DNA of 61,258 bases. It comes from a virus. Its lineage: Duplodnaviria; Caudoviricetes. This document shows, piece after piece, positions 3,601-59,989 of this stretch. The DNA lies in IMG/VR virus record IMGVR_UViG_3300035204_001041, positions 1 through 61,258 of that record; one strand, written 5' to 3'. Both the position numbers and the translations under genes were made by a program. Under the pieces are notes generated by a model. That model was not told the DNA's origin. It searched no databases and saw nothing but the letters and a program-made list of their open reading frames with translations. Positions within the stretch are counted from its first letter, which is position 1; each line of letters opens with the position of its first letter.

Positions 3601-3666
3601 TGTGTCCTCCTACAGACTTTAGGTTGGCTTGGTTGATTGAATGCCCACTGCATCCTATCTATGATC

Positions 3667-6847: not shown

Positions 6848-7414
6848 TCATTTTTTGGATCTCTTTTTTTCCTGGCGCTGATCTTCTTCCCAAACCTCAG
6901 CAACAATCTCTTCAATCCACTTCAACCCACCATGACATGAGCCACCTACAACACGAGCATAAGTTTTTGGTGGAATACCAGACCTCAAAGCCTCGGCAAT
7001 AACTTTCTTTGCCATGTCCACATGATGCTGAGCTTCCAGCATTATAGTGCGCCGGTTGTCGTAATACAGTTGGTGTTCTCTAGCTCTTAGCACCTGCACA
7101 CCAAGACCTTCCCTTAGTGCTTTTGTAGAGTACTCATATAGAATGCCCAAGCATGAGTACATGCCTTCACCAAAGTAGTCATCTGCCTTAATCCAGTCAT
7201 CATGTTGATCGACTAACTCAGGCGGCATTTCGCCAATGAACCCAGTGTGATCAACGAACACACACTTTTCCGGTAGCCGCTCATCCTCTACCAACACTGC
7301 AAAGTCTAAGTCGCCATACCCTTGTGGGTCTTCACACGATGGCCTCACATAAAGAGTCAGCTTCTCTAATCTTCCAGAAGTTCCGTACCCAAAATCATAT
7401 TCGTTCCATTCCAT
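6848..7414 (-). CDS. Hypothetical protein
   Basis: Start placed at ATG 7414 behind a GTAGGAGGG RBS (ORF track starts at 7579). Confidence 0.75.
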   Translation of the reverse strand: MEWNEYDFGYGTSGRLEKLTLYVRPSCEDPQGYGDLDFAVLVEDERLPEKCVFVDHTGFIGEMPPELVDQHDDWIKADDYFGEGMYSCLGILYEYSTKALREGLGVQVLRAREHQLYYDNRRTIMLEAQHHVDMAKKVIAEALRSGIPPKTYARVVGGSCHGGLKWIEEIVAEVWEEDQRQEKKRSKK

Positions 7415-7460
7415 ACGCCCTCCTACATGCGCTTGTTCATGGTTGCTTGTCGTGCCCCCG

Positions 7461-9735: not shown

Positions 9736-9766
9736 TATTTAGTGGCCTCCTACCTCCACTGTTTAT

Positions 9767-9830
9767 AATATACCACGGGGCTGGTTAGAGCGAAAGCTCA
9801 TAGTTAGCCAAATAGCAAGTTTGTGCGACC
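9767..9830 (-). promoter_or_regulatory. Phage promoter, family member 5
   Basis: CTAACC...CGTGGTATATT (extended -10); upstream GGTCGCACAAA. Confidence 0.75.
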
Positions 9831-10867: not shown

Positions 10868-10886
10868 GTTGCCCTCCTACCATATA

Positions 10887-12935: not shown

Positions 12936-13345
12936 GGGTGAACTAACCTAATAGGGATGATTTCAATGGATGGTGGTTCGTTATAAATCTCTTGCCACCT
13001 GTTTCTAAGCACAGCGTAGACATTGCCTTTCGCGGTAGGGCCGCCTTTAAGAATCGCCCACATCCCGGCTTCAGCAGCCCAGCGCACATCGGGATCTTGC
13101 AAGGCGCTCGCGTATAGTGCCCTCAAACGGCGATCTAAGCGCGTCCAGCGGTTGGCCCACCGTGCAACCCTGGCAAGATCGGTGTGAGCTACACAGCCGC
13201 CTTCTGACAGGGCCATACGCACGTCCTCAATAAAAGCCCCAACAGGCTCCCAGTGAGACAAATCTTCAACTTGCGACACAAGGGTCAGCAGAGCCATACG
13301 ACTTGCAGTTTCGTTCGCTGCCCAACGCTCATCAAGGGATGACAC
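12932..13345 (-). CDS. Hypothetical protein
   Basis: Start placed at GTG 13345 behind GAGGAGGTG. Confidence 0.7.
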   Translation of the reverse strand: MSSLDERWAANETASRMALLTLVSQVEDLSHWEPVGAFIEDVRMALSEGGCVAHTDLARVARWANRWTRLDRRLRALYASALQDPDVRWAAEAGMWAILKGGPTAKGNVYAVLRNRWQEIYNEPPSIEIIPIRLVHP

Positions 13346-14861
13346 TTGCCACCTCCTCTTCGCGTGAGATCTGGTCCACATCAACGATCTTGTCGCACAG
13401 TTGGTTCAGCGCATATGAAAAGCTCCCGCCACCAACCGCAAGACCATAAACCCTCGTATTGTTCTCTTCCTTGGCCCACTCAAGCTTCTCCATAACTGAT
13501 GGGCTGATCTCCGCTTCACCGTCAGTAACGATCAGGAAGTCTGATTTTGAAGAGTACAGGTTTAGCTCAGCATTCAAAGTAATCGCTGCCTCAAAGGGCG
13601 CGTCAAAAGAAGTGCCGCCCTGAAACCGCATGCTGGTCAGTGCAATGCATACTTGGGGAGCACCACCCTCAAGCTTGGTGCTTTCCGTCAGCTTCTTCAC
13701 GTCGTACTCAAAGGCTTCGCCTTTAGCGTTGATCGAGTAAACGAAAGTCACCCGCCTATTGAAGCCAATGAAGGTAATGGGGCGCTTTTCTTTCTGTGCG
13801 ACTCCCGCACAACTCAACGCGATAGCTGAAGCCCACAATCCTGCATCGCATGAATCCATGCTTCCGCTGGTGTCAACCATTACGATCATTGGCCCACGGC
13901 CTTCTTTCTTTACACCTTCCATGCGGTACTCAGCCATCTTGCGCTCGGCAAGCTTAGCAAGCTGATAGGTCCTCATCTGTGGCACTTTCAGCATTGCCAT
14001 TTCGCTTGGCAGCATACGCATGAAGTCATCGCCACGAGTCACACCAGTAATGACACCAACACCGCTCGGATCTCTTTCTTTACGGGAAGCCTCTGACAAC
14101 CGGCGCAACCTTCCAGCAAGCTTCATCAACTTCTTTAGGCGCTCATTTCGGCTAAGCTTCTTTGCCAACTCAAGGCGCGTATTGTCTTGCTGCGCAAACA
14201 TCGCAGGGGCTTGGTCATAACCAGGCTTCAGCCCAGCCATTGCTGACTTCACTTCTGCCGCCTCTTGGCCTGCATCATTGCAAGCTGACCTCATTGCTGC
14301 ACGAAACTCATCTGTTCCAGAAGGGGTTTGCTCCTGGCCTGCTGGTGAAGGCGGCATCCCTAAAAGCTCTTGTGCCTTTCTCTTTTGCTCTTGCTTCTTC
14401 TCTTCCTTCATACCCTCAAGCAACGAAGGCAAAGCCTTATTGAAGGCTTCCATCATCTTTCCGGTAGCCAGCGCAGTGATGTCAGGATCGCCCTGGACTT
14501 GCCTACGCAATGATTCAAACTCTGGCAATGAAGAGATAAGCTCGTGCGCACGCTGAGTAACCTCAGTTCCAGTACCGGGGTTCTCAACTTGCTCTAAGTC
14601 CCTGGAAGAGTAAAGCTTAGAAAACACCTCTTTAGTCGTTCCCTCGCTAACCCGGCTTATACGCTGAGCTTCTTTAGCGAAATCAACGCCAGTGTTGGAA
14701 CCCAACACATCCCCTTTCAAGATATTAGACATCCTGGTAACTGAAATGCCAAGTTCAGGCACCGACTGGATGCGGCTCTCACTTAGGTAGTGGAGCCACT
14801 TATCCAAGCGCAGGGTCAGGTCTAGATCCTGAGTACTATTATCCCACTCTGAAAAGCTCAT
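13332..14861 (-). CDS. VWA-domain protein (ViaA-like MoxR partner)
   Basis: MIDAS motif VDTSGSM, GGTSF, LIVTDGE; ViaA-like GVTRGDD..RMLPSE segment. Confidence 0.9.
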   Translation of the reverse strand: MSFSEWDNSTQDLDLTLRLDKWLHYLSESRIQSVPELGISVTRMSNILKGDVLGSNTGVDFAKEAQRISRVSEGTTKEVFSKLYSSRDLEQVENPGTGTEVTQRAHELISSLPEFESLRRQVQGDPDITALATGKMMEAFNKALPSLLEGMKEEKKQEQKRKAQELLGMPPSPAGQEQTPSGTDEFRAAMRSACNDAGQEAAEVKSAMAGLKPGYDQAPAMFAQQDNTRLELAKKLSRNERLKKLMKLAGRLRRLSEASRKERDPSGVGVITGVTRGDDFMRMLPSEMAMLKVPQMRTYQLAKLAERKMAEYRMEGVKKEGRGPMIVMVDTSGSMDSCDAGLWASAIALSCAGVAQKEKRPITFIGFNRRVTFVYSINAKGEAFEYDVKKLTESTKLEGGAPQVCIALTSMRFQGGTSFDAPFEAAITLNAELNLYSSKSDFLIVTDGEAEISPSVMEKLEWAKEENNTRVYGLAVGGGSFSYALNQLCDKIVDVDQISREEEVASVIP

Positions 14862-14881: not shown

Positions 14882-14933
14882 AGTATACCACGCGCCGCGT
14901 TAGAAGAAAACTTCACGCGGCATTAAGTATGAC
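14882..14933 (-). promoter_or_regulatory. Phage promoter, family member 7
   Basis: TCTAACGCGGCGCGTGG-TATACT; upstream GTCATAC. Confidence 0.7.
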
Positions 14934-16141
14934 TACTTGATACCGTATGCTCCGGTGTTCTTGGCAATAGCCCTTGCAACTGATTTCTGCATGGCGACAA
15001 GCTTATCAACAGCCACCTTGTACTCGTAATCATTCAAGTCAATCGCACTTGAATCCGCGATACGCTCAAGCTCTGTTTGGCCCATCTTGATGACTTGAAG
15101 TACAGCACCAAGGTGGTCAACGCCAGGAGCCTTGAGATCACAGTCGCGGTAACGCTGAGTCACGCCATCCATAACCTTGGCAACCTTCACGATTCCAGGG
15201 CATGCATGGTTCGCTACCGCTTCATACACTACCGGGCGATCTTCATGGCGGTTCCACATCACTCGCGTCAACACCATTAGATCTCTATCCGTTGCGATAG
15301 TGCGGCCTTCAAGCACTGCATGCGCTTTCACCGCTGCAAGACATTGTGCCCAACGACGATCACTCAGCTTCACGCCAGACTTGATCTCCAAGCTATCCCA
15401 AATGTCCAACATGGTTTCAATCACGCTTTCAGGGATCACAACCTTTGATGTCACTTCTTGAAGAAGCTCTCTCGTTTCCACACTCATCTGCTCGCTTACA
15501 TCTGGCTTAGCCCCATTGCGGGACATCATAAGAAGCTCGCGGCGTGCCCCACGGTCACTAAGGTAATCCGTCCACTCCCTAAACATGAAGCGATCATAAA
15601 GAGCATCTAGAATGCTTGACTGTGGGTACTCGTTTGAGCAGCCAATAATCGTCTCAAGAGGCATACCGATACGATCTGCGCCTTGGTCAAACTCCCGCTC
15701 CTCAGCGGCAGTGAGCAATGCATTCAGGATTGGATCGGATCCCTTGAAGATTTCATCCTTCAAAGCAAACTTCGCATGCGGCAGAAAGCCGTCCGTCTTG
15801 CGCACATACTCACCCTTCTCAAACTTGCCGAAGTCCAGCGGGCCAAACAAGTCTTCAGGAAGAGTAAAAGCAGTAATCAAGCGCTTGAATACATCATCCC
15901 CTTGGAAGTTGAAAGCCTTGGCGATCAAGTAAAACATCGTTGTTTTCGCCGTACCCGGAGGCCCAAGGAAAAGAACGTGCCGCTTGCAAAGAAGCGCCAT
16001 GATCGCGCTATCAATCTCTTGGTTCCTATTGATCAGCGCTGACTTCAGTTCTGTACGAACCGTCATCAAAGATTGGTATGCGTCGTGGGCAGGCAAATCG
16101 CCCCCGAGCAAGTTGTGAGTTTCAAGGTTCTTAGTACCCAT
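14933..16141 (-). CDS. MoxR-family AAA+ ATPase (RavA-like)
   Basis: Walker A GPPGTAKT, EDLFGP, Walker B DEIFK, SNE, ALYDRF, SDRRW. Confidence 0.92.
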   Translation of the reverse strand: MGTKNLETHNLLGGDLPAHDAYQSLMTVRTELKSALINRNQEIDSAIMALLCKRHVLFLGPPGTAKTTMFYLIAKAFNFQGDDVFKRLITAFTLPEDLFGPLDFGKFEKGEYVRKTDGFLPHAKFALKDEIFKGSDPILNALLTAAEEREFDQGADRIGMPLETIIGCSNEYPQSSILDALYDRFMFREWTDYLSDRGARRELLMMSRNGAKPDVSEQMSVETRELLQEVTSKVVIPESVIETMLDIWDSLEIKSGVKLSDRRWAQCLAAVKAHAVLEGRTIATDRDLMVLTRVMWNRHEDRPVVYEAVANHACPGIVKVAKVMDGVTQRYRDCDLKAPGVDHLGAVLQVIKMGQTELERIADSSAIDLNDYEYKVAVDKLVAMQKSVARAIAKNTGAYGIK

Positions 16142-16174
16142 GATGCCCTCCTACCGGCTTAGGTTTCTAAAGTA

Positions 16175-16226
16175 ATTATAACACGGCAACGGTTAGATAA
16201 ATATCATAAAACAACTTTGTGCGACC
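16175..16226 (-). promoter_or_regulatory. Phage promoter, family member 8
   Basis: TCTAACCGTTGCCGTGT-TATAAT; upstream GGTCGCACAAA. Confidence 0.8.
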
Positions 16227-17328: not shown

Positions 17329-17377
17329 TTGATTACCCTCCTACAAGAAATAGCAGCACCATGCCGCCATCACATTT

Positions 17378-17430
17378 ATAATACCACGGGCACCGTTATA
17401 AACAACTTCAAAGGCTAACTTTGTGCGACA
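17378..17430 (-). promoter_or_regulatory. Phage promoter, family member 9
   Basis: TATAACGGTGCCCGTGG-TATTAT; upstream TGTCGCACAAA. Confidence 0.75.
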
Positions 17431-21129: not shown

Positions 21130-21138
21130 TAGTACCTC

Positions 21139-21960
21139 CTACTGGCTGACTTGGTTGTTGTTTGGGCGCCTACGGCGTCCGGTTGAACTTGTTTTTTTCT
21201 TCTTTGGATCCGGCGCAACATCTTGGGTGCCTTCCGGCCCCGTTGCACCAATCTTTTCTAAAATCGCTCCTACATTCGGCTCTTCCACAGCGTCAAGCCC
21301 TGGAAGGCTCTTAGTCATATAGTTTGAAGGGCCGCGAAACATTACACGGTGTTGGACATGCACTGCCTCGTCCTGCACCACCTGTTCCCGAAACACATAG
21401 CCGACTGCTGAAAAGTACCCACAGATCTCGTTAGGCATTTTTCGCCCTTCAAACGAAGGCATCGCATGGCGAGTACCAGTAGCCTCATCGAACTCATATT
21501 GAGCAAGGGCAGTACACACGACAGTAAAAGGCAGGTCACGGACTGTGCGGATCATCTTGCGCATACGATCCGTAAGCAGCCCCCAATCAGCCAAAGTGAA
21601 CTTTGCTGCGGCACCAGGCGTGGCACCTTTCTGCTTCATAATGTCGTCTTTAATAAGCCTCTGCATTTCTGTAAGGCTATCGATCACAATGGTTTCACAC
21701 CCAGTGAGTTCCTTAAGCCTGCCATTGAAGCAGTCCTTGAAGAACGCATACACCTTGTCTAAGGAATCTGCCTCTACCACAACCGCTTGCGGATTAGTCG
21801 CTTGAATAGTCATCAAGCCATTAGGCTCAACTAACAAAACCACCGGCTTTGGTGAAAGGCATGCGAGCCTGGTCTTGCCTGAACCACTGTCTCCCAGAAA
21901 CAGCAGCTTCGCAGTTTTCGGCAACTCATGTGCCTGTTTGTATTCTAAAACATCGGACAT
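21139..21960 (-). CDS. Sak4-like / AAA_24 ATPase (single-strand annealing recombinase)
   Basis: GDSGSGKT, TIVIDSLTE, DWG motifs. Confidence 0.85.
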   Translation of the reverse strand: MSDVLEYKQAHELPKTAKLLFLGDSGSGKTRLACLSPKPVVLLVEPNGLMTIQATNPQAVVVEADSLDKVYAFFKDCFNGRLKELTGCETIVIDSLTEMQRLIKDDIMKQKGATPGAAAKFTLADWGLLTDRMRKMIRTVRDLPFTVVCTALAQYEFDEATGTRHAMPSFEGRKMPNEICGYFSAVGYVFREQVVQDEAVHVQHRVMFRGPSNYMTKSLPGLDAVEEPNVGAILEKIGATGPEGTQDVAPDPKKKKTSSTGRRRRPNNNQVSQ

Positions 21961-23360
21961 TGGGTATTCTCCTCACTGGATAAACCAGCATTTCTATGTA
22001 GCCATTGAAGTTTTTCGCGCTGAATGAAACCAGTGTTAGGCATTCCCAAATAGCCCTCGATCATCTGATCCAGAGAATGGCCCCCCTCCATACAAATGCC
22101 AGCGAATGAACAGCTTGAGCCTGGGCCACGGCAAAATGGCACACGAGGAAAGCCGCTCAACACATCCTGCTCTGTCTCTGCCGTGACAAGAGATCTGTAC
22201 ATTTTCGCAAACCGCTGAACATCAACAAACAGTTCACGCCGATACCGATCAAGCACTTCCGCAGATGGGTGCCCCCACTCACGGTGATAAAGCTTTGGGT
22301 CTACCTTTTCCTTTAAGTCATGCACAAGTTGTTTAGCTGACTGAACATACTCAACATCCAGGCTAACGCTGCTTTCCATAAGCGCCCGCATGCTTTCCTC
22401 AAACTTCCAGCTAGGGCACGTTTGGGACGTAGCTAAGGAGAGCCGCCCATTCTTTAGCACTCTTGGTGTAGCGTGCTTGCGGCTGGATGAAACGTCCCAA
22501 ACGTACCCTTTTACTGTTCCTGGGAATGTCTTATTTTCTGATAATGCTAGGACATAGCCTGGCACTTGGTTGTCTAAGTGGAGGTCTTTGCCATACGAAA
22601 GTGGGTTTGCAGAGGTCTTAAACTCTAAAACGTATACATCGTTGGTTTTCTTATGGCGCAATATCGCATCAAGTCTGCCGACTTGGTACCAAGGAAGGCG
22701 CACCATTTTCCATGGTTGTTTTTCTCTAAAAGAAGCAACCCTCCAGCCTGCTGCTGTTTCTACAACAGGCACCTGGGAAGAGTATATTTTGCCGGTATCT
22801 GGGTGCCTTACAGGCAGGCACACTGGCACCTCTACACCCACAATGTCGTAGTTCTCAGGCCCTTTGTCTCCATAGCGCTTTAGATAGCCAGAAGCAGCGT
22901 CGTAAAGCGACTGTATGATGCCGTCTGCACCACCATACTTTTCCGCAAAACTGTCCCAGTAATCCCGGTTGCTATCAACCTCTTCCCTTATACGCGCAAG
23001 CGGGCCTAAAGAAGTCCCGTGGCACATTTCACAATCTGCATTGTGGTTCCTACCATGTTCTACACCTGAACAGATGAGCATGTACTCGGGCTTATATGCG
23101 CATGATTCACCGTCTACGCTGCGCGTAATCGCCCAGTGTGTGTAAATGTCCTCAAGTATGGCGTGGTAGAAAGATCCCCAACGCATGGCGATACTTGGCG
23201 GTGTCGCAAGGCTGCGCCCATACGAAAACATCCACCGCCTACTGCACCAGGCTTCGCGCCTTTCACTGTTACTTAGGACCATCGCGCCATCAGGCAAACC
23301 CGCAATATGATTATCGTCATATCTGGGCGCAATAGTCTTTTTTGGGCGAAAACGCCTCAT
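21945..23360 (-). CDS. PD-(D/E)XK exonuclease (Cas4/RecB-like, Fe-S type)
   Basis: WCSRR, GSFYHAILE, GRLDAI...LEFKT, QVPGY, C-terminal C..C...C cluster. Confidence 0.85.
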   Translation of the reverse strand: MRRFRPKKTIAPRYDDNHIAGLPDGAMVLSNSERREAWCSRRWMFSYGRSLATPPSIAMRWGSFYHAILEDIYTHWAITRSVDGESCAYKPEYMLICSGVEHGRNHNADCEMCHGTSLGPLARIREEVDSNRDYWDSFAEKYGGADGIIQSLYDAASGYLKRYGDKGPENYDIVGVEVPVCLPVRHPDTGKIYSSQVPVVETAAGWRVASFREKQPWKMVRLPWYQVGRLDAILRHKKTNDVYVLEFKTSANPLSYGKDLHLDNQVPGYVLALSENKTFPGTVKGYVWDVSSSRKHATPRVLKNGRLSLATSQTCPSWKFEESMRALMESSVSLDVEYVQSAKQLVHDLKEKVDPKLYHREWGHPSAEVLDRYRRELFVDVQRFAKMYRSLVTAETEQDVLSGFPRVPFCRGPGSSCSFAGICMEGGHSLDQMIEGYLGMPNTGFIQREKLQWLHRNAGLSSEENTQCPMF

Positions 23361-23460
23361 GTTGCCCTCCTACCGGCTATTACCCTTATAGGGTTACGCA
23401 CCAAAATCCGCAACGGTCACTGACTACTTATACTTCACCAGCATGCCAAAAAGTGTCCGG

Positions 23461-24135: not shown

Positions 24136-24183
24136 ATTACCCTCCTACCGGCTAAACACACAAACACCCTACCACTAAAAAGG

Positions 24184-24414: not shown

Positions 24415-25935
24415 TCACCTCTTCCTTGTATTTTTCAGCGCCTCTAACAGAGCGCTTAGTGCATTAGTGCGAGAAACCAGGGCTGGTATTTTCGCGTTTA
24501 TCGCATTCCTATAGGCAAGGGCGCGAGCCTGCCATTGCCTATGATAAACCGGATCTTGGTCCACTAAGTCTACCACCACAGGGGTAGCTTTTCCTTCACA
24601 AACCCTCATAGCTCGGCCAATTCTTTGTATTGCTCTGCCACCAGCCTTCCCAGTGCTAGCATTTACTAAGAAGTCTAAGTTCGGAACATCTAGCCCCTCG
24701 TCAGCTAGTTGCGTAGCAACAACAGCCTGTAGCCTTCCTTTTCTAAGATCTGATAGTGCCCTTTCTCTGGCCTTTTTGTGCATTTTCCCGGTAACTGCTT
24801 TGCAGTCTATTCCACGCATAGAGATTTGGTCTGCAAGCCAATAGGCCAACTTTACGCGAGGCACCAAAATTAGGCAGGTTCGTCCATCTTCAGCACCAAT
24901 CATGGAGATTTCTACAAGCAACTCCTTACGCTCTTCATCGTCGCACAGGTAGTTTAGCGCTTTTGCGCTTTTCTTAGTCCCGCCGTGCTGTTTTCCCCAT
25001 GCGCTCAAAGGCACGCTTACACCAGTCGATATAGGGACGATAGAAGGCATGATTAGGAAGCCCTGTTCCACCAAATGCCTGGGCTTCATGGAGTACAACA
25101 TCGGCCCAATAAACATTGGCAATAGGCACCCCCAACCATCAGGCCGGTCAGGTGTCGCGGTTAAGCCCCACCTGTAGCGAGCAGGTAGTTCTTTAAACAA
25201 GGACCTAAAGCTATCTGCGGGCGCATGGTGGCATTCATCCAGTAATACTGCCCCTGCTGATTTGAGCAATGGGCCACGCTTCAGTTGGTTAGCATGAAGC
25301 GTCTGAACCATCGCCACACAAATCTCGTCGTCTTTCAGTGGCCGCCATCGGTAATCACCACCACCTGAACTCACTTTACGCACATCGCAAGCGTACATAT
25401 TCTCAAATACACCGCACCACTGAAGCAACAAGTCTTCCGTATGCACTAAAACAATAGAAGGCTGGCCAGAAGCCACAATAGCAGCCGCACCAAGGACAGT
25501 TTTCCCGGCACCACAAGGCAATGCAATGTAGCCCTGGACCCTGTCTAGCATCAACTTTACAGCCTGCTGTTGGTAATCCCTAAGATTCACCCCCAAATCC
25601 ATTAGGGGCACTAAATCACAAGATCTTTTAGTGACCTTGATGTTCCCATCAACATTGATAGACGCGCCATTCCTGCTAGCGAGTGAAGAAACTGTTGTGT
25701 ATGCGCCCCTGGGCAGCACCATCTCCTCTTCCCAAGTCGGGCCTGATCTCATCCTATAAAAATTAACGTGCCTTTGAACATGGGTACTATCCAATCCAAT
25801 CTTACGCCTCTTCTCCAACTCTGGGTTCTTGATTACAAAGTGCTGAGCAATCGCCCAACGAAGAGATTTTGGGATCGATTTGTGATCAAGAGAAAGCTCT
25901 GAATCAACCCTGGCGTTGATGATTGTTTTACTCAT
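24415..25935 (-). CDS. Superfamily 2 (DEAD/DEAH-like) helicase
   Basis: LRDYQ, PCGAGKT, DECHH, GLTATP, EGLDVP, QRIGR; start placed at ATG 25935. Confidence 0.93.
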   Translation of the reverse strand: MSKTIINARVDSELSLDHKSIPKSLRWAIAQHFVIKNPELEKRRKIGLDSTHVQRHVNFYRMRSGPTWEEEMVLPRGAYTTVSSLASRNGASINVDGNIKVTKRSCDLVPLMDLGVNLRDYQQQAVKLMLDRVQGYIALPCGAGKTVLGAAAIVASGQPSIVLVHTEDLLLQWCGVFENMYACDVRKVSSGGGDYRWRPLKDDEICVAMVQTLHANQLKRGPLLKSAGAVLLDECHHAPADSFRSLFKELPARYRWGLTATPDRPDGWGCLLPMFIGPMLYSMKPRHLVEQGFLIMPSIVPISTGVSVPLSAWGKQHGGTKKSAKALNYLCDDEERKELLVEISMIGAEDGRTCLILVPRVKLAYWLADQISMRGIDCKAVTGKMHKKARERALSDLRKGRLQAVVATQLADEGLDVPNLDFLVNASTGKAGGRAIQRIGRAMRVCEGKATPVVVDLVDQDPVYHRQWQARALAYRNAINAKIPALVSRTNALSALLEALKNTRKR

Positions 25936-25942
25936 AAAAATG

Positions 25943-26015
25943 AAGGGGGAGGAGCAATCGTCGGGTGGGAACGACAAGGTTGCAAATGTAGGAGGGCAAC
26001 CCGCTCCTCCCCCTT
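25943..26015. ncRNA. Predicted three-way-junction RNA/DNA structure between divergent genes
   Basis: Perfect 13-bp closing stem (25943-25955 / 26003-26015) enclosing hairpins GTCG/CGAC and GGTTGC/GCAACC; T-rich flanks. Expression not shown. Confidence 0.5.
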
Positions 26016-26140
26016 GTTCTTTTAGGTCTTTTCAGCAATTTTCGCATCTTTTGTGCGTTTTTGCCACCAGCAGCCTATAAATAAAACAATGCCCCGCCCA
26101 GGTTAACGGCCCAGGCGAGGCGAACACCAGTAGTGGAGTA

Positions 26141-27718
26141 GTGTTAGTGACTGCCAAAGCAGCCACATTGCAATCGTATCACCCTAGCGTACTGTCAACA
26201 ACTATTGCTGGCTCTACGCTCGGTGAAAACAGCCCATTAGTAGGCTTACAATCCAGTAATGCCTACAATCTAGCGTGCCCGGACACATCTGTATCTCGGG
26301 CTAATCGTGCTTTGTACTGGGTTTTCGGCGAACTCAAGCAAAACACCATGCAAAAGCTCAAAAATGGCTTCTGGTACATAGAAATATGCCCAACTTATTT
26401 ATCCTCTATTGAAGGCATCAGTAGGTGGGCAGCAAGCGAAGCTTGGCACCAATCAAAGAAAGCAATCCCATGGCTTGAAGTAAAGCTCAAAAGTGCAGTT
26501 GCTATGGGTGCAAAGATCAGGAGCCTAAAACGAGGGCAAAAGTGGGGTAGGCACCTACTTCTCACTGAAGATGGTAAGAAATCTTACATTAGGTGTGCAA
26601 AACTTTGCCGTGATGCAGGTTTTTTTGAAGCCTTTGGTGAGCCGCACAATGCTCAACAGCCCTTAGTTGGGGTGGTTGGCCTGCCACACGCACTAAGAGG
26701 CTTACAGTGCGATTCAGGCAAGCGTACTGCCGCCGTTAGCTGCCCGCTTGGGCACCAACACAAACACGCAGATAAATCACCTTCACTTATTTTGTGGCGC
26801 AATGGCTCAAGCCCTACAGGGGGAGCAAAGTGCTTCACTTGCGGGGCCAAGTTTGCGGTTCGCTACAACCAGCAAAATGCACAACTATACACCCCCAGAT
26901 TAGAGAAGGTTAAAAGCGCCCAAACACCCAAAACCGCGCCTTTTTTTAGTCACCAGCACAATAAAAACCTAATAGGTTGTAAAGGTACTCCTATAGGCGG
27001 TCATGTTGCTACTACGGATCGTTCTTATAGGCATGTTGGGGCTAGGTTATTTGGGGTGTGTGTTGACGGCTCCGCTCAAACAAAGCGGTCCATTGGCTCA
27101 GGGCTAAAAGGCGGCCCAATACAGGCCCTAAAATGGTCCGAAAACAGGAGTAAAGGCGAATCAGCGCGTGGAAAAGCCAACTTATTGAGTAGCTGCATTG
27201 ATTTAGACCTTACAAAGCAAAGCAAACACTGGTCACCAACATCTCTGGTATCTGTTTCATCCATGCGCCCGTCTGAATGGGTCAATGTTGGCCCCTATAA
27301 AAGACCATCTAAGTGGACTGCTGCACGCCAAAAGTGGCTTCTGTTTGATTTGGACGACATATGCCTAGAAAACGCCGAAAAAACACTACCAAATAGCATT
27401 TTAGAGCTTTTTGGCGGACATGATGAGTTTACTGGAACTGCGGCTGTTGTACAGACTGGCCCTGTTGGCCTTCAAATATGGGTAGAGCTAAAAAATGAGC
27501 GATTTAGCCCTGATTCTTGGTTTTCCCAAGAAAATGTCCGCTCTTGGTACAGATCAATAGGAAGCGCGATCTTGAAAAAAGCACAAGAAAGCGGCTGTTT
27601 GGGTGGAAAAGTAGACATGGCAAGCTGCGCACCTGGCAGGTTTGGAAGAAGGCCAGGGTGGAGGCTATTGCCTGATGGGAATGTCTTTAGATCGAGTCTT
27701 TTGGGTGTGAAAAACTAA
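26141..27718 (+). CDS. Zn-finger + AEP/RepB'-like primase-domain protein
   Basis: CPLGHQH...DKSPSL...CFTCG (CHC2-like); C-terminal LFDLDD, VQTGPVGLQIW and D......RFGRRPG. Start uncertain. Confidence 0.6.
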   Translation: MLVTAKAATLQSYHPSVLSTTIAGSTLGENSPLVGLQSSNAYNLACPDTSVSRANRALYWVFGELKQNTMQKLKNGFWYIEICPTYLSSIEGISRWAASEAWHQSKKAIPWLEVKLKSAVAMGAKIRSLKRGQKWGRHLLLTEDGKKSYIRCAKLCRDAGFFEAFGEPHNAQQPLVGVVGLPHALRGLQCDSGKRTAAVSCPLGHQHKHADKSPSLILWRNGSSPTGGAKCFTCGAKFAVRYNQQNAQLYTPRLEKVKSAQTPKTAPFFSHQHNKNLIGCKGTPIGGHVATTDRSYRHVGARLFGVCVDGSAQTKRSIGSGLKGGPIQALKWSENRSKGESARGKANLLSSCIDLDLTKQSKHWSPTSLVSVSSMRPSEWVNVGPYKRPSKWTAARQKWLLFDLDDICLENAEKTLPNSILELFGGHDEFTGTAAVVQTGPVGLQIWVELKNERFSPDSWFSQENVRSWYRSIGSAILKKAQESGCLGGKVDMASCAPGRFGRRPGWRLLPDGNVFRSSLLGVKN

Positions 27719-28056
27719 ACCCTTCCATAGTCATCTTGAATACGCACTACATCACCATCATCGTGTGTGCTTACTTCAGCAACAATGACGTAGTTACAAC
27801 CTTCCGCACAACCCATTCTATGCACGCTTTCAGGGGGGATATGTGCCCCCATGCCTGGATCAAGCTCTGTATGCGCCCCATCTTGCTCGAAAGCTAAACG
27901 GCCATGCAACACGATAATCGTTTCCTCTTTGCGTTGATGGTACTGCAATGAAAGCCGTTGACCTTTTTCAATGCGCATCAACTTCCCAGTATATTTCCCA
28001 GGAACATCAGCCCATATCAATGTGCTTCCCCAAGGTGAATGTTTAGTTTCACCCAC
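27715..28056 (-). CDS. Cupin (mannose-6-phosphate isomerase type II C-terminal-like)
   Basis: PWG...GQRLSLQYHQRKEET...HIPPESVHR...EVST...DVVRIQDDYGR. Confidence 0.85.
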   Translation of the reverse strand: MGETKHSPWGSTLIWADVPGKYTGKLMRIEKGQRLSLQYHQRKEETIIVLHGRLAFEQDGAHTELDPGMGAHIPPESVHRMGCAEGCNYVIVAEVSTHDDGDVVRIQDDYGRV

Positions 28057-29092
28057 CGATCACCTTCCCCTTAAGGCTTGGCCAAATTTTCCGAGACAAC
28101 TTGTTTCTTTGCGGTTTGTTGTGGACGTTTTCTACTGTTTCTAAATCAGCCTTGTTTGGTAGGGATAATTTAGGCAAAAGACCAGCCCTGGTGCCGCTTT
28201 TAGCATTGCATCTATCACAAGGGCTAAAGCCACGTTCCTTTTGCTGTAGGAACTTACGGGCCGCAGTAAACTCTGGCCCCCACCAAATGCTGTGAAGCGT
28301 TCTTTCTTTCACATTTCCACAGGTGTACTCATGGCCCCAGTCCATGCAGCAGATATTGACGTTCCCGTTGTAGCAAACGGTGATTTCCCTAAATGGCTGC
28401 GTACAAGTCCTGCTGTATGGCTCATCAGGGATCGGCTGATCGGCGGCATTTCCCGCATGGTTCATAAGTGTTCTTGAACCGCTTTCGCCGCTACGAATAC
28501 CAATGTCATCCATAACGATGATTAAACCTGTGATCTTCCTCTTGTAGTTGTAATAGGGCGAGATCCCTTGCGGAATGCACTCATCATAAAAGTCTAAGAC
28601 CTTTACCCTGGAAACTTCGCTTGCAAGTTGCTGTAGCTTGGTTCTTTCAGGCTCATATGTGTCTAAAATCACAATATCAATGCCTGCATCAAACGCTTTC
28701 ATAGCGTGTGTTTCTACGGGGTTTCTGCTTTTTTTATCCCGCATCCATGTTCGACCATTAGTCGTTAGTTGAAACTGCGTATTGGGCAAATATCGCCTAA
28801 AAAGGCCGATTATTTCTTCCCACTCTGGGTGTAGGGTTGGCTCTCCATGCATTGCAAACTCTACGCGAGCATTAGGGCAAAGCTGGGCTAGCTGTTTAGC
28901 GGTAAGTTCAGCAACCTCTATGCCCATGAAGTGGTATGGCTGGCCAACTGCTTCCCTGATCCCATTTAGTCCACAAAAAGTGCAAAGCCGATTGCACCCT
29001 TCTGTCAGTTCTAACTGAACGGACCAAGGCGCATGCAGCCCCTCGCTTTTCCCACTTTTACCGACTTGCTTTTTCTTTTTTAGAATGGGCAT
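28049..29092 (-). CDS. Radical SAM enzyme with SPASM/twitch domain
   Basis: CNRLCTFC, HGEPTLHP, TTNG; C-terminal CTQPF...CCMD...CDRC. Confidence 0.92.
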   Translation of the reverse strand: MPILKKKKQVGKSGKSEGLHAPWSVQLELTEGCNRLCTFCGLNGIREAVGQPYHFMGIEVAELTAKQLAQLCPNARVEFAMHGEPTLHPEWEEIIGLFRRYLPNTQFQLTTNGRTWMRDKKSRNPVETHAMKAFDAGIDIVILDTYEPERTKLQQLASEVSRVKVLDFYDECIPQGISPYYNYKRKITGLIIVMDDIGIRSGESGSRTLMNHAGNAADQPIPDEPYSRTCTQPFREITVCYNGNVNICCMDWGHEYTCGNVKERTLHSIWWGPEFTAARKFLQQKERGFSPCDRCNAKSGTRAGLLPKLSLPNKADLETVENVHNKPQRNKLSRKIWPSLKGKVIGG

Positions 29093-57067: not shown

Positions 57068-59989
57068 TTACAACTCAGGTGTGGTTTCTTCTACTGTACC
57101 ACCAAAGTCTTTCGGCATTGAAAGCTCGTTCTCATACTCAGAGAAATCTTGTGTAGATTCAAGAGCAGCCAAGAAGAGTGCTTGTAGCGCCTCAAAGTCA
57201 ACATCTGTTGGCTTAGGGTTGCCCTCAGCCGCATTTCCAGCCACCGGAAACGGCAAGGTGTATTGAGCCAAAGATGCAAGCTGCTCTTGCAACAGAGCTT
57301 TAAGTGGGTGTGCTGGTGAAAGCCTCTCTTCCGCGCCACTCAACAACGCAAGGCCCTGACGCAAATGCCAGTTAGCAAGCTCTCTAAACCCTAGGTAAGA
57401 GTCGCCAGCCACAACCACTGAGTTCTGGAAGCATTTGCCTGCTTCTTCAATCATCCCGTCGTTCATGTACTGCAAACCAAGCGAGCACCAACTACCAGTG
57501 TTCAGTGGATCATCTTCAATGGTGAGAGCTAACAGCCGGGTATAAAATTCAAGTTTCTCCTGCATTTTATCATCATCTAATCCAAGCCCAATATGATCGG
57601 TTTCAAACGGGGCAAAGCGCACTTGTGGGTGAAGCCCCATGCTGCGCACTTGGTTTAGCCCTTTCTCTACAGTCTCGTGTACACGGCCTGAGTATTTCAT
57701 CACCCCCCCACGATCCAAGAGGAACATTCTTAGGGTTTCGCTGTAGTTGAACGTCTTGTCTTTACGCCAGTTGCGGAACTTAAACATCCAACCCCAAGTG
57801 TTGGAGCATTCAGCCATCCTTCTGATGGAAAGAAGGTACAGGAACTCTTGGTTCCAATGCTCATCATCATCCATAGTAAGGAACCAACGGATCCTGGGGT
57901 CTTCTTTGGCCCTTAGTACATCAAGGGCTGCATTCCTCACTTCAGAAAGATCGTCATTGAAAGGCTTGTAAACCCATTCTGCCCCAAATGTCTCAGCAAC
58001 ATCTTTAAGGCTTTGCTGTGGCTCAGTACCTTCTGGGCCTGTCCACACAAGAACAATCTGATCGCACAGCCCGTAGACGTGATCTAAGAAACGGTAGAGG
58101 CCGCCAAGCTGGCTTTCCTTATGAATAAGCATTGAGAACGCAATGCCATTTCCTGGAACATACGGGCTTAGCTGCATGTTTTCTTCATTGACCAAATGGC
58201 TGTAACCGCCACCAGTGAGCAGCATATCTGGTGATGGATCAATGGTGGTGTAGAACTGGTGTTTGCGTACACGGTCTTGGTGCCTGATGTACCCAAAGTG
58301 CCTGAAGCGGATCCCTGCCACACGCCGAGAACGGGTAGTGACTTCCGGTGAGTTACCGCAATGAAGCCCAACGTCGTTCTCTTTATCAATGCGGCCACCT
58401 GTAATGCGTGCTTTAGCTTCAGGGTGTTTGTTGACCCTCCACAAGCGGCAACCATGCATTCCACTGGTATACCCACTAGTCCAAGGGGGGTCTACCCGGC
58501 AAACCCTGGGTGTATCCCAGTGGTTTAGCCAACCAAAATCCCAAGCATGAACATTGGGGTTGGGGTGGCAAATGAGGCGGCGGAAAAGTGCCCGATCTAC
58601 ACGGTCCTCAAGAAACTCGTCGTGATCAATAGAAAACACCCAATCAGCACCCATGTCTTCAGCCATTTCAATGCTCTTGTTGCGCTCGTCACGCTCATTG
58701 AAATCTCCATCCCATACATCAACAGTAATGGGCACGTCGTGCTCGCACTCCCTTACAGCATGAGCAAGGAACTCTTCCATTGCATTAGAGATGCTGCTTA
58801 GGTTGGACGCGTTTCCACAAGCGCGAATGAGCTTTTGTGAGATCGGGTTTAGGGCTTGCTGGTTGAAGTCGTATGCCCCTTTGATTTCCATTGGGTTGTT
58901 GGTAAGCAATACAGCGAAGCCGTCTACAACCTGTGCGTTTCTACGAACACAATCAAAGAACATAGCAAGATCATGCATAGTGCCGATTTTTACACGCATG
59001 CATGCAATGACTTTCTGATCATCATCATTCGCTGGTGCCCACTTCTTTGCGTACACAGAAGCGTTCATTAGGCCGCGATCCATTTCTGGAAAGTGTTTAT
59101 CTAGTGTTTGGTGGCCTTGGTGGTGGACATAACAATCCGATGCAATGCCAAGCTTCCACCCTTTTCTAACAGCCCGTGCAGCAATATCGTTGTCATCATA
59201 TCCGCCGATACCAAATGCGGGGTCGAGAAAAAAGGTTCCATCTTCCCCTGCTTCAATCAAATCCTGCAAGCATTCACGCTTGTAAGCAACACAGAATCCA
59301 GACAAGAAGTCAGAGTTGAGCACCCGGCCAGTTTTCCCAGCTTCCCATTCTGCTGAAAAGTCATCAAGAACCTTGTGGGATTTGTGCCCGTAAAACTCTT
59401 CTGCTTTCCCTTCAATGTTTCCGGTGGGGATAGATTGAGATCCAGCAACAAATGTTGAAAGAGGCCCAACTAAACCAAGGCGACCGTATGACTCAATTTC
59501 ATCACCCTCGCCGTAGTAATAGGACTCATCCATATCAACTTTGCTTTCAAAGAAAATACGATCAGTGTTTAGCGCAACACCAAACTTCTTGGCCCAGTTG
59601 TGGGTAACTACAACGTCGTCATTCATAATAATGACGTAGGGCGATAGGCTCTTAAGGCTGAATACACCTTCATTTACAGCGCCAACCCAACCTGCTGGTG
59701 CGCCCATGTCGATCCAGTTCAAATCAACAGACTGCTTAACAACCCCGTTTGATCCAAAACCGTTGTACTGTTCACACAAAGCCGCAACTTGGGCTTTAGA
59801 AGCGGAAGCTTCAGCTTTGCCTTCTTCAGTTGGGTTGCACACAACAGTAAGCTTAAATTTAGCTTTAGGTGTCATGCGCAAAATGCGTTCAACTGAAGCT
59901 GAAATAAGCTCCTGTGACCCCATTGTTGGGATGATCACATCAAAGTGATTTTGATCGTCATTAACGAATTGGCTGTCTTCTGTATCCAC
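57068..59989 (-). CDS. Multidomain glycosyltransferase (three GT2-like domains + TPR-like C-terminus)
   Basis: Domain 1 VIIPT/MNDDV/GGYDDND/VHH; domain 2 ERN/SIDHDE/HFGY; domain 3 EVRN/TMDDDE/GRVHE; TPR-like DPLNTGSWCSLG...EAGKCF. Confidence 0.88.
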   Translation of the reverse strand: MDTEDSQFVNDDQNHFDVIIPTMGSQELISASVERILRMTPKAKFKLTVVCNPTEEGKAEASASKAQVAALCEQYNGFGSNGVVKQSVDLNWIDMGAPAGWVGAVNEGVFSLKSLSPYVIIMNDDVVVTHNWAKKFGVALNTDRIFFESKVDMDESYYYGEGDEIESYGRLGLVGPLSTFVAGSQSIPTGNIEGKAEEFYGHKSHKVLDDFSAEWEAGKTGRVLNSDFLSGFCVAYKRECLQDLIEAGEDGTFFLDPAFGIGGYDDNDIAARAVRKGWKLGIASDCYVHHQGHQTLDKHFPEMDRGLMNASVYAKKWAPANDDDQKVIACMRVKIGTMHDLAMFFDCVRRNAQVVDGFAVLLTNNPMEIKGAYDFNQQALNPISQKLIRACGNASNLSSISNAMEEFLAHAVRECEHDVPITVDVWDGDFNERDERNKSIEMAEDMGADWVFSIDHDEFLEDRVDRALFRRLICHPNPNVHAWDFGWLNHWDTPRVCRVDPPWTSGYTSGMHGCRLWRVNKHPEAKARITGGRIDKENDVGLHCGNSPEVTTRSRRVAGIRFRHFGYIRHQDRVRKHQFYTTIDPSPDMLLTGGGYSHLVNEENMQLSPYVPGNGIAFSMLIHKESQLGGLYRFLDHVYGLCDQIVLVWTGPEGTEPQQSLKDVAETFGAEWVYKPFNDDLSEVRNAALDVLRAKEDPRIRWFLTMDDDEHWNQEFLYLLSIRRMAECSNTWGWMFKFRNWRKDKTFNYSETLRMFLLDRGGVMKYSGRVHETVEKGLNQVRSMGLHPQVRFAPFETDHIGLGLDDDKMQEKLEFYTRLLALTIEDDPLNTGSWCSLGLQYMNDGMIEEAGKCFQNSVVVAGDSYLGFRELANWHLRQGLALLSGAEERLSPAHPLKALLQEQLASLAQYTLPFPVAGNAAEGNPKPTDVDFEALQALFLAALESTQDFSEYENELSMPKDFGGTVEETTPEL

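Follow-up and report, generated by a model that had tools for sequence, protein, structure and literature searches.

A conserved three-way-junction element in the helicase leader of an uncultured tailed phage, with a loop complementary to a class of the phage's own ribosome-binding sites

The window analysed here, meaning the whole stretch of DNA, is a 61258-bp IMG/VR virus record (IMGVR_UViG_3300035204_001041) with an estimated completeness of 82%, and almost all of its genes are carried on the minus strand. A 1714-amino-acid (aa) tape-measure-like protein together with head and tail matches identified the genome as that of a tailed phage. The DNA sequencing runs containing the stretch were labelled as seawater or marine metagenomes, no RNA run containing it was among the 22 runs listed, which bears neither way on expression, and a 3.4-kb blastn query against GenBank phages produced no match. 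The element under study is a predicted RNA domain of 73 nucleotides (nt) with a three-way junction (positions 25943-26015, minus strand), supported by folds, covariance-model matches and pair counts. It lies in a 205-bp intergenic region between two divergent genes, an SF2 DNA helicase (24415-25935, minus strand; ResIII 5.6e-24, Helicase_C 1.7e-17) and a 525-aa open reading frame (ORF; 26141-27718, plus strand). An earlier reading made from the letters alone (the sequence-only reading) had placed it just upstream of a helicase ATG with no obvious Shine-Dalgarno (SD) sequence, and this was correct: the element ends 7 nt before the ATG at 25935, and the 20 nt preceding the start (CUCCUCCCCCUUCAUUUUU) contain no SD. 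Read in the helicase sense, the region consists of a terminator-like hairpin with a T-run (26121-26091), a 23-nt block AAAACGCACAAAAGAUGCGAAAA, CCUAAAAG, the element, CAUUUUU and the AUG.

Refolding returned, on both strands, the perfect 13-bp closing stem (25943-25955 with 26003-26015) around two hairpins that the sequence-only reading had described. The fold energy of 25943-26015 was -39.2 kcal/mol (z -5.65) on the minus strand and -39.4 kcal/mol (z -4.39) on the plus strand, with none of 200 shuffles as good on either strand, and the same fold also had the lowest energy when stretches of 85 nt and 176 nt were folded. AAGGGGGAGGAGC (26003-26015), purine-rich and SD-like, forms the 5' arm of the closing stem on the minus strand, and GCUCCUCCCCCUU (25943-25955) the 3' arm. 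This 5' arm, about 70 nt upstream, holds the sole GGAGG near the helicase start, and no SD that the fold could sequester in cis was present within 20 nt of that start. Hairpin 1 (25978-26001) has a 6-bp stem and a 12-nt loop, CCUCCUACAUUU (25984-25995), with a predicted unpaired probability of about 1.0 in the window. The plus strand at 25988-26000 reads GTAGGAGGGCAAC, and part of its minus-strand complement is displayed in the loop of hairpin 1, both as claimed earlier. Hairpin 2 (25959-25976) carries the loop UCCCACCC and is variable and poorly conserved in relatives; the complement of its loop was not enriched in the window (11 matches against 14.4 expected), and none of the matches lay at leaders. 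Rfam searches gave nothing meaningful at E<=1 over 25000-28000, at E<=10 over 25900-26130, or at the gathering score over the whole window. The element is a predicted structured RNA without an Rfam family, and it is undescribed as far as Rfam and the GenBank phage nucleotide search extend, no search for prior descriptions having been made.

A total of 75 gene starts was predicted by a crude ORF and SD rule, and the starts and promoters given here are our own calls. GGAGG was present 4-12 nt upstream of 14 of the 75 starts, and in 9 of these 14 it was preceded by GUA. Two classes of ribosome-binding site (RBS) were distinguished. The class-a consensus is GUAGGAGGG(C/U)AA-AUG (such leaders are also abbreviated as GUAGGAGGGC leaders), and its core GUAGGAGG occurs at 9 of the 75 predicted starts (24135, 23360, 21129, 17328, 16141, 10867, 9735, 7414 and 3600). 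All nine genes come first after intergenic gaps, all lie at 3.6-24.1 kb, and most are preceded, at a variable distance, by promoter-like TGGTATAWT or TATAAT boxes. The class-b RBS is AAGGAGGUGA-GUG, and the genes behind it share 4 nt with the gene before them. The two dialects can be seen on the minus strand at, for example, 1170, 1355, 5697 and 5867 (class b) versus 23360 and 10867 (class a).

The candidate target RBSs, all on the minus strand, are GUAGGAGGGUAAU-AUG at 24136-24148 (84-aa gene), GUAGGAGGGCAAC-AUG at 23361-23373 (PD-(D/E)XK nuclease), GUAGGAGG at 21135-21142 (170-aa gene), GUAGGAGGGUAAU at 17332-17344 (351-aa gene), GUAGGAGGGCAUC-AUG at 16142-16154 (MoxR-type AAA+ ATPase), GUAGGAGGGCAAC-AUG at 10868-10880 (85-aa gene), GUAGGAGGCC at 9744-9753 (221-aa gene), AUGUAGGAGGGC at 7417-7428 (gene starting at 7414) and GUAGGAGGAC at 3604-3613 (187-aa gene). 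The perfect 13-nt complementarity claimed for the 10867 and 23360 leaders was exact at both sites. One- and two-mismatch copies of the 13-mer complement precede 16141, 17328 and 24135; the 11-nt match attributed to the 16141 leader was present with 1 mismatch in 13, and the 12-nt match attributed to the 7414 leader (AUGUAGGAGGGC) was found shifted 2 nt into the loop, where it gave the best loop duplex in the window (-17.2 kcal/mol). The identities given for two of these genes also held, with domain matches to a PD-(D/E)XK nuclease at 23360 and a MoxR-type AAA+ ATPase at 16141.

The leader matches go beyond chance. With at most two mismatches the 13-mer had 7 matches where 1.4 were expected, a number that none of 100 shuffles reached; the 10-mer GCCCTCCTAC, with at most one mismatch, had 10 against 2.7 expected (0 of 100 shuffles). 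When the 12-nt loop was slid over 61238 sense-strand positions, the 7 best duplexes were all class-a RBSs (-15.6 to -17.2 kcal/mol), and class-a RBSs made up 9 of the best 11 loop partners on the whole sense strand. In the window and the relatives' loci there were 32 distinct contexts of GTAGGAGG, of which 27 were RBSs (counted as such if a start codon stood 4-10 nt after GGAGG), 4 were leader loops and 1 was neither. Three IMG/VR relatives (G001-G003) each contained 1 antisense copy of GTAGGAGGGC, which is the loop, and 3-4 sense copies downstream of the helicase, while a reversed control pattern had 0 copies in the same three. The conserved RBS block (GUAGGAGGG, then C or U) and the invariant part of the loop share the same limit, and the flanks vary on both sides. 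A near-copy at 26421-26433 (plus strand) was set aside as chance; it is part of the 525-aa ORF, and no structure was predicted for its minus strand (z +0.73).

Duplex energies were computed for the loop with its closing G-C pair and compared with those of a canonical 16S 3' tail, a standard motif that may not be the host's; they ignore the three-dimensional constraints of loop pairing, and were used in place of RNAcofold of the element with its targets, which was uninformative as it cannot model loop-loop pairing. Class-a RBSs were predicted to pair with the loop at -15.1 to -24.3 kcal/mol versus -10.2 to -13.6 kcal/mol with the 16S tail, a preference for the loop of 3.5-13.6 kcal/mol. Class-b RBSs were predicted to pair at -10.6 to -14.2 kcal/mol with the loop versus -15.1 to -17.6 kcal/mol with the tail, a preference for the tail of 0.9-7.0 kcal/mol. 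The conserved 16S 3' end does not pair with the GUA and GC flanks of the class-a RBS, and therefore something besides the ribosome must keep these flanks. The loop was predicted to be unpaired at a probability of at least 0.87 in 3 of 4 leaders and about 0.5 in that of L004, one of the relatives described below. The mean unpaired probability of the target SDs was 0.33-0.99, and several lie in the loops of mini-hairpins (e.g., GCC-N-GUAGGAG-GGC), which would allow loop-loop pairing.

A protein search found helicase homologues at 73%, 57-58% and lower identity, with P0004-P0008 at 50-58%. The relatives whose DNA was compared were a metagenome contig (L082) and three IMG/VR records (L003, L004 and L005), with helicase identities to the window of 95% for L082, 74% for L003 and 73% for L004/L005; L004 and L005 are identical in the leader region, L083 is a fragment without the leader, and many relatives fall at or below 45%. 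The fold recurs upstream of the orthologous helicase in these four related uncultured phage sequences. The whole leader is alignable across the closer relatives, with covariation in the upstream terminator and no change in the 23-nt block. Inside the element, the stems have diverged among relatives (closing stem of 11-13 bp), and every relative keeps the loop block GCCCUCCUAC unchanged.

A covariance model trained on two sequences, the window and L082, found L004, L005 and L003 at E 2.6e-6 to 3.6e-5 and nothing else among 51 sources; a second model, from four sequences, found nothing at E <0.4 among 60 further helicase loci. The best other match of the two models (E 0.43) lay antisense to an RBS in L083. 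Two exact-pattern scans of IMG/VR returned only the L003-L005 records, and a genome contig scan returned only relatives at 39% or less. The sequence family of the element thus appears narrow, since the models and pattern scans detect no members besides the window, L082 and L003-L005. One purine-rich hairpin, in L014, was rejected as chance, being within the helicase coding frame of a phage of 77% GC.

Covariation in related phages, which had been proposed as a check, was looked at in 4 distinct sequences. In a model-fitted alignment of these, which leans towards the modelled structure, 94.6% of cells pair versus 85.8 +/- 2.3 in shuffles (0 of 500 reached 94.6%), and pairing dropped to 50-60% when the partners were slid by 1-3 columns. 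Both sides change in 7 of 24 pairs, comprising 3 in the closing stem (3 of the 13 pairs of that helix, changed between lineages), 2 in hairpin 1 and 2 in hairpin 2, and these reflect about two lineage splits and hence few events. Hairpin 1 shows two compensatory pairs and two G-C to G-U changes among relatives; in L003 and L004 its stem is GGCCGC/GCGGUU, whose two G-U pairs would turn into A-C mismatches in a plus-strand molecule. Folded as plus strands, L003 and L004 also lose hairpin 1 and pair the motif. The functional strand is accordingly read as the helicase-sense (minus) strand, because the G-U pairs fit that strand only and the plus-strand folds pair the motif, and the object would be an RNA, with single-stranded DNA as a less likely alternative. 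In contigs of a strain that is about 94% identical to the window (48 differences in 801 nt), none of the differences listed falls in 25883-26021, while the flanking helicase codons show at least 31 differences in 240 nt. The codons over the loop in the upstream frame read PSY in the window, L082 and L003 and ALL in L004, and the invariance of the loop is not a coding effect, because the frame over it differs while GCCCUCCUAC is unchanged.

Two freshwater relatives with 44-45% helicase identity, L085 (leader stem at 2915-2980) and L087 (2918-2983), carry a 14-15-bp GC-rich stem with 2 compensatory pairs, followed 13-18 nt on by an SD-less helicase start. These stems hold unpaired CU-rich stretches (UCUCCC or UUCCUCC, and CUCCUUG or CUCCUGG). 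The covariance models do not detect either leader, and the resemblance is suggestive only of a diverged form of the helicase-leader element.

Upstream of the element, a candidate helicase promoter was recognised at 26019-26047 (minus strand), consisting of ATGCGA (26042-26047), a 17-nt spacer and TAAAAG (26019-26024). The layout RTGCKR-N17-TAMRRN was present in 6 of 6 leaders from 3 clades, including L085 and L087, with unrelated spacer sequences; it occurs once in 122516 window positions, and it ends 3-5 nt before the closing stem among the leaders (3 nt in the window). We infer that this layout is a promoter. If it is of the sigma-70 type, transcription would start at the base of the stem and the fold would form the very 5' end of the RNA. 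After the closing stem, the sequence is UUCAUUUUU in the window and L082 and GCC(CC)UUUU(U) in L003 and L004, so that termination after the stem is plausible in the window and not clearly conserved. The invariant 23-nt block AAAACGCACAAAAGAUGCGAAAA (26039-26061, minus strand) contains a small palindrome (CGCA-N7-TGCG), the candidate -35 box and an AUG at 26047. Membership of this block in the GGTCGCACAAAGTT repeat was considered and dropped, as only an 8-mer is shared, at about chance level.

From the AUG at 26047, a frame of 39 codons (25928-26047, minus strand) runs from the invariant block through the element to a UAA that overlaps the helicase start (AUGAGUAA). The frame is open across the element in 4 of 4 sequences despite frame-shifting indels, and the remaining two frames across the element contain stops in L003 and L004. 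It ends 15 nt before the helicase in L004, forms an in-frame fusion in L003 and overlaps the helicase by about 25 nt in L082. Further upstream, the hairpin at 26091-26121 (minus strand) resembles an intrinsic terminator, with 12 pairs (9 G-C) and a T-run, and covaries in relatives. It may stop antisense read-through from upstream minus-strand genes, or form a 5' hairpin of the plus-strand mRNA. It stands 20 nt from the start of the divergent plus-strand gene.

The interpretation that we tentatively favour, at a little under an even chance, is that the element is a leader-embedded antisense RNA that would occlude the class-a RBSs in the manner of the c4 RNA of phages P1/P7. It would form a structured domain at the 5' end of the helicase transcript, Y-shaped, very stable and read from the minus strand, in which hairpin 1 displays the invariant loop (GC)CCUCCUAC as a putative anti-RBS for class a (GUAGGAGGG(C/U)AA-AUG). 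The class-a RBSs head about nine promoter-proximal genes downstream of the helicase. Pairing would take place over 8 loop nucleotides and, with opening of the hairpin stem, could extend to 10-13 bp; it would hide the SD from the 30S subunit and lower translation of the class-a genes, and class b (AAGGAGGUGA-GUG), which is predicted to pair better with 16S rRNA, would escape. The domain may act while attached to the helicase mRNA, or as an RNA of about 75-85 nt after termination or processing at the U-run that follows the stem. We infer the transcription start, the release of the RNA, its pairing in vivo and the direction of the effect, for which repression is likely by analogy. The base-pairing prediction fits because the scaffold is stable, the loop is open and invariant, the match to the RBS is exact and non-ribosomal, and relatives show the same arrangement of one antisense copy plus several sense copies. 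The proposal of the sequence-only reading, a trans-acting anti-SD RNA on the minus strand for a gene class, is partly supported, as to the fold, the strand, the invariant loop and the best partners, but the conserved complementarity is 10 nt, and the 13 nt are specific to the lineage of the window.

Several points weigh against an antisense role. About three independent lineages carry the element, and loop and RBS motif are both invariant, which amounts to co-conservation with no loop-target covariation; relatives that share one of the two features share the other by descent. The match is 13 nt in one lineage only and 10 nt in L003 and L004, and the universal anti-SD core accounts for 5 of the 10 loop bases that are conserved. 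Part of the RBS flank (GGGC) may have been retained for the sake of the mini-hairpin GCC-N-GUAGGAG-GGC, and the loop of hairpin 2 has no enriched complement, in contrast to c4, which recognises its target with two loops. A single RNA would need to titrate 9 or more mRNAs, each with its own promoter, and the promoter ahead of the element is itself predicted from sequence. An alternative fold in L004 halves the predicted accessibility of the loop, no Rfam match was obtained for the element in the searches above, and the frame from the invariant AUG (26047), open through the element in 4 of 4 sequences, would, if translated, bring ribosomes that melt the fold and so would point to a role in cis.

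A more far-reaching form of the antisense reading, which we consider doubtful, is a private translation code, in which the class-a RBS is weak for 16S rRNA and perfect for the loop of the phage RNA, so that an accumulating RNA shuts the class off. The loop RNA would accumulate from the helicase promoter and out-compete ribosomes at class-a sites, and genes with the canonical AAGGAGGUGA would continue. If true, this would be an RNA-only timer of a multi-gene translational regulon in a lytic phage, in which the loop and the RBS class co-evolve.

The antisense reading has to be weighed first against a helicase leader that acts purely in cis, as a stabiliser of the mRNA 5' end, as a block to the 30S subunit beside the SD-less start, or as an attenuator; in one variant, the frame from the AUG at 26047 may hand ribosomes to the helicase start and the loop match would have no function in trans. 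The two are not mutually exclusive, and a leader of this sole kind is possible, if on balance unlikely. Its position 7 nt before an SD-less start, a candidate promoter that would put the transcript start at the stem base, and a frame that is open in 4 of 4 sequences despite indels, with its UAA overlapping the helicase start in the window (AUGAGUAA), all agree with it, as does the GC-rich stem before an SD-less helicase with the same promoter-like layout in L085 and L087 (44-45% aa identity). What it leaves unexplained is the 10 invariant loop bases amid drifting stems and a differing reading frame, and a loop complement that is exactly the RBS class unlike 16S, including the GUA flank. If the promoter prediction is right, the AUG at 26047 lies within the -35 box and would not be transcribed from that promoter, and by our rough estimate the probability that the frame is open by chance is about 0.04-0.1. 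The attenuator put forward in the sequence-only reading survives as one such cis role, for which the stem and UUCAUUUUU in the window resemble a terminator, but in L003 and L004 the U-run and the stem are 3-5 nt apart. It is improbable that the element is an ordinary intrinsic terminator, perhaps a bidirectional one, with incidental inner hairpins. The 13-bp GC-rich stem has AAAAG upstream and is flanked by U-rich tracts on both strands (UUCAUUUUU on the minus and UUGUUCUUUU on the plus strand), but the 47 nt that it encloses are branched, include an invariant sequence and have an inner stem that covaries, a terminator scan (loop 3-8) does not call it, and the other terminators of the phage, such as those before 16141 and at 26091-26121, are simple hairpins. 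It is also placed between divergent genes and not at the end of a unit, 7 nt from a start codon, with a canonical terminator 75 nt upstream on the same strand and no plus-strand gene upstream, and in L003 and L004 the U-run is separated from the stem. The bidirectional terminator that the sequence-only reading had named as the scenario counting against its proposal therefore fits poorly.

An element acting at the DNA level, such as a replication origin, a cruciform or a site for a protein that also recognises GTAGGAGGGC elsewhere, would suit a location between the helicase gene and a divergent gene read as primase-polymerase-like, the operator-like appearance of the neighbouring invariant palindrome CGCA-N7-TGCG, and the similar fold energy of the two strands in the window. 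We regard it as quite unlikely, however, as the G-U (G-T) pairs of L003 and L004 fit one strand only, a site in duplex DNA needs no covarying stems around it, and the other copies of the motif stand at a fixed distance before start codons and at variable distances from promoter-like -10 boxes. The remaining proposal of the sequence-only reading was an RNA of the plus strand whose hairpin loop would present GUAGGAGG and act as a decoy for a translational repressor of those RBSs, either a CsrA-like protein or one of the phage. In the window, the plus-strand hairpin loop indeed shows AAAUGUAGGAGG, identical to the class-a RBS. The decoy is nevertheless disfavoured to the point of being scarcely credible: in L003 and L004 the hairpin would have two A-C mismatches and the predicted folds pair the motif, and the region to the left holds neither a plus-strand gene nor a recognisable promoter, the sole plus-strand promoter-like site being to the right. 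Model scores on the plus versus the minus strand were 25.3 versus 112.1 bits in the window and 15.6 versus 34.3 bits in L004, a comparison biased by a model built on the sense strand. In place of the several GGA hairpins of CsrB/RsmZ-type decoys and other multi-site decoy RNAs, a single GGA hairpin was found on the plus strand, and it is not conserved in L003/L004.

Among known systems, the c4 RNA undergoes RNase P processing and acts on icd/ant in an immunity operon. The Rfam C4 model ('C4 antisense RNA' family) gave no match at E<=10 in a 231-nt search, with chance hairpins far below threshold only, and the element is not a member of that family. The c4 RNA of P1/P7 is about 77 nt long with three stems and has its ends closed by stem P1 (PMC5320573); it is cut out of the leading part of a longer transcript, and its loops pair with the mRNA, one of them covering an RBS (PMC5320573, PMC12197685; further context in PMC8201110). 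In silico, the element shows the same type of size and three-stem form (73 nt, a closing stem plus two hairpins), and the two are alike as small multi-stem RNAs at the front of an operon with stem-closed ends. Each also carries a hairpin loop whose complement is an RBS farther down the same strand, where pairing would block translation. They differ in that c4 uses two loops (b' for an RBS later in its operon and a' for a site upstream of that RBS), whereas here only loop 1 has targets; the motif here is common to about 9 RBSs with their own promoters and not to one RBS; and the genes concerned are replication/middle genes of an apparently lytic siphovirus and not an immunity operon.

The C-rich-loop small RNAs of Gram-positive bacteria (RNAIII, RsaE, RoxS/FsrA) pair through their loops with the SDs of several mRNAs and block initiation. 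The element resembles them in having an exposed C/U-rich hairpin loop facing the G-rich SD regions of several mRNAs. Those RNAs have bacterial genes of their own, several redundant C-rich motifs and loosely matched targets, whereas the element has a single loop, matches a phage-specific extended RBS exactly over 10 nt and lies within an mRNA leader. In phage T4, RegA is a protein that represses translation at the start regions of a set of the phage's own early/middle genes; the likeness lies in a phage-encoded factor for its own start regions, and the difference in that RegA is a protein and the candidate here an RNA loop. Terminators, attenuators and 5' stabilising stem-loops share with the element a GC-rich stem with a U-run and a probable location at the mRNA 5' end, but the element has a branched 47-nt interior, an invariant loop, a covarying inner stem and a setting of divergent genes beside a start codon.

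Regulatory RNAs of lytic and uncultured phages are poorly known, and to our knowledge most known phage antisense RNAs have a single target. If the antisense reading is true, a compact mRNA-leader domain would control about nine phage genes through one kissing loop, and this control would be linked to a second, recognisable RBS dialect within one genome. It would also provide a rule for spotting regulons in metagenomic phages, namely the exact antisense of an over-conserved RBS in a conserved hairpin. If the element is only a cis-acting leader, it would still be an unannotated, conserved, structured RNA without an Rfam family.

With regard to the remaining features of the window, the replication-type genes at 3-25 kb include a primase/DnaB-like helicase, the PD-(D/E)XK nuclease, the MoxR AAA+ ATPase and the SF2 helicase. 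No tRNA or tmRNA was found in a tRNA/tmRNA scan. The host is probably a bacterium, because sigma-70-like promoters and intrinsic terminators are present; an archaeal-type promoter reading was rejected in view of the sigma-70-like -35/-10 pairs and the intrinsic terminators. The divergent 525-aa gene (26141-27718) is the sole long plus-strand gene and had no Pfam or PHROG match; a homologue with 48% identity occupies the same position and orientation in the relative L162. It contains a C..H..C..C zinc-finger-like stretch and the motifs LFDLDD and TGPVGLQIW, and from these motifs it is read as primase-polymerase-like. A radical SAM/SPASM protein adjoins a small cupin protein at 27715-29092 (minus strand). 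The MoxR-type AAA+ ATPase gene (14933-16141, minus strand) adjoins that of a 509-aa protein with a weak PHROG 'RNA-binding protein' match (13332-14861) and no Pfam match; a Ro/Y-RNA link suggested by that match was rejected, having no Pfam support.

Two promoter-like repeat types were also observed. CTAACC-N~10-TGGTATAWT occurs at 9-24 kb, upstream of 17328, 16141, 14861, 10867 and 9735 and weakly of 24135, and CGCTGGCGTATAAT, in some cases with a TTGCAA -35 box, occurs at 1.7-6.5 kb, upstream of 6534, 4148, 3600 and 1710; their distribution suggests two temporal classes. The sequence (GG)TCGCACAAAGTT was found at 16213-16224, 17417-17428 and 9817-9828 (minus strand), twice exactly and once with 1 mismatch; all three copies have a terminator-like hairpin on one side and a promoter-like box on the other, and they may be sites for a regulator. 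The minus-strand positions 57711, 19084, 7726 and 2980 share runs of (A)GUGGGGGGG(U).

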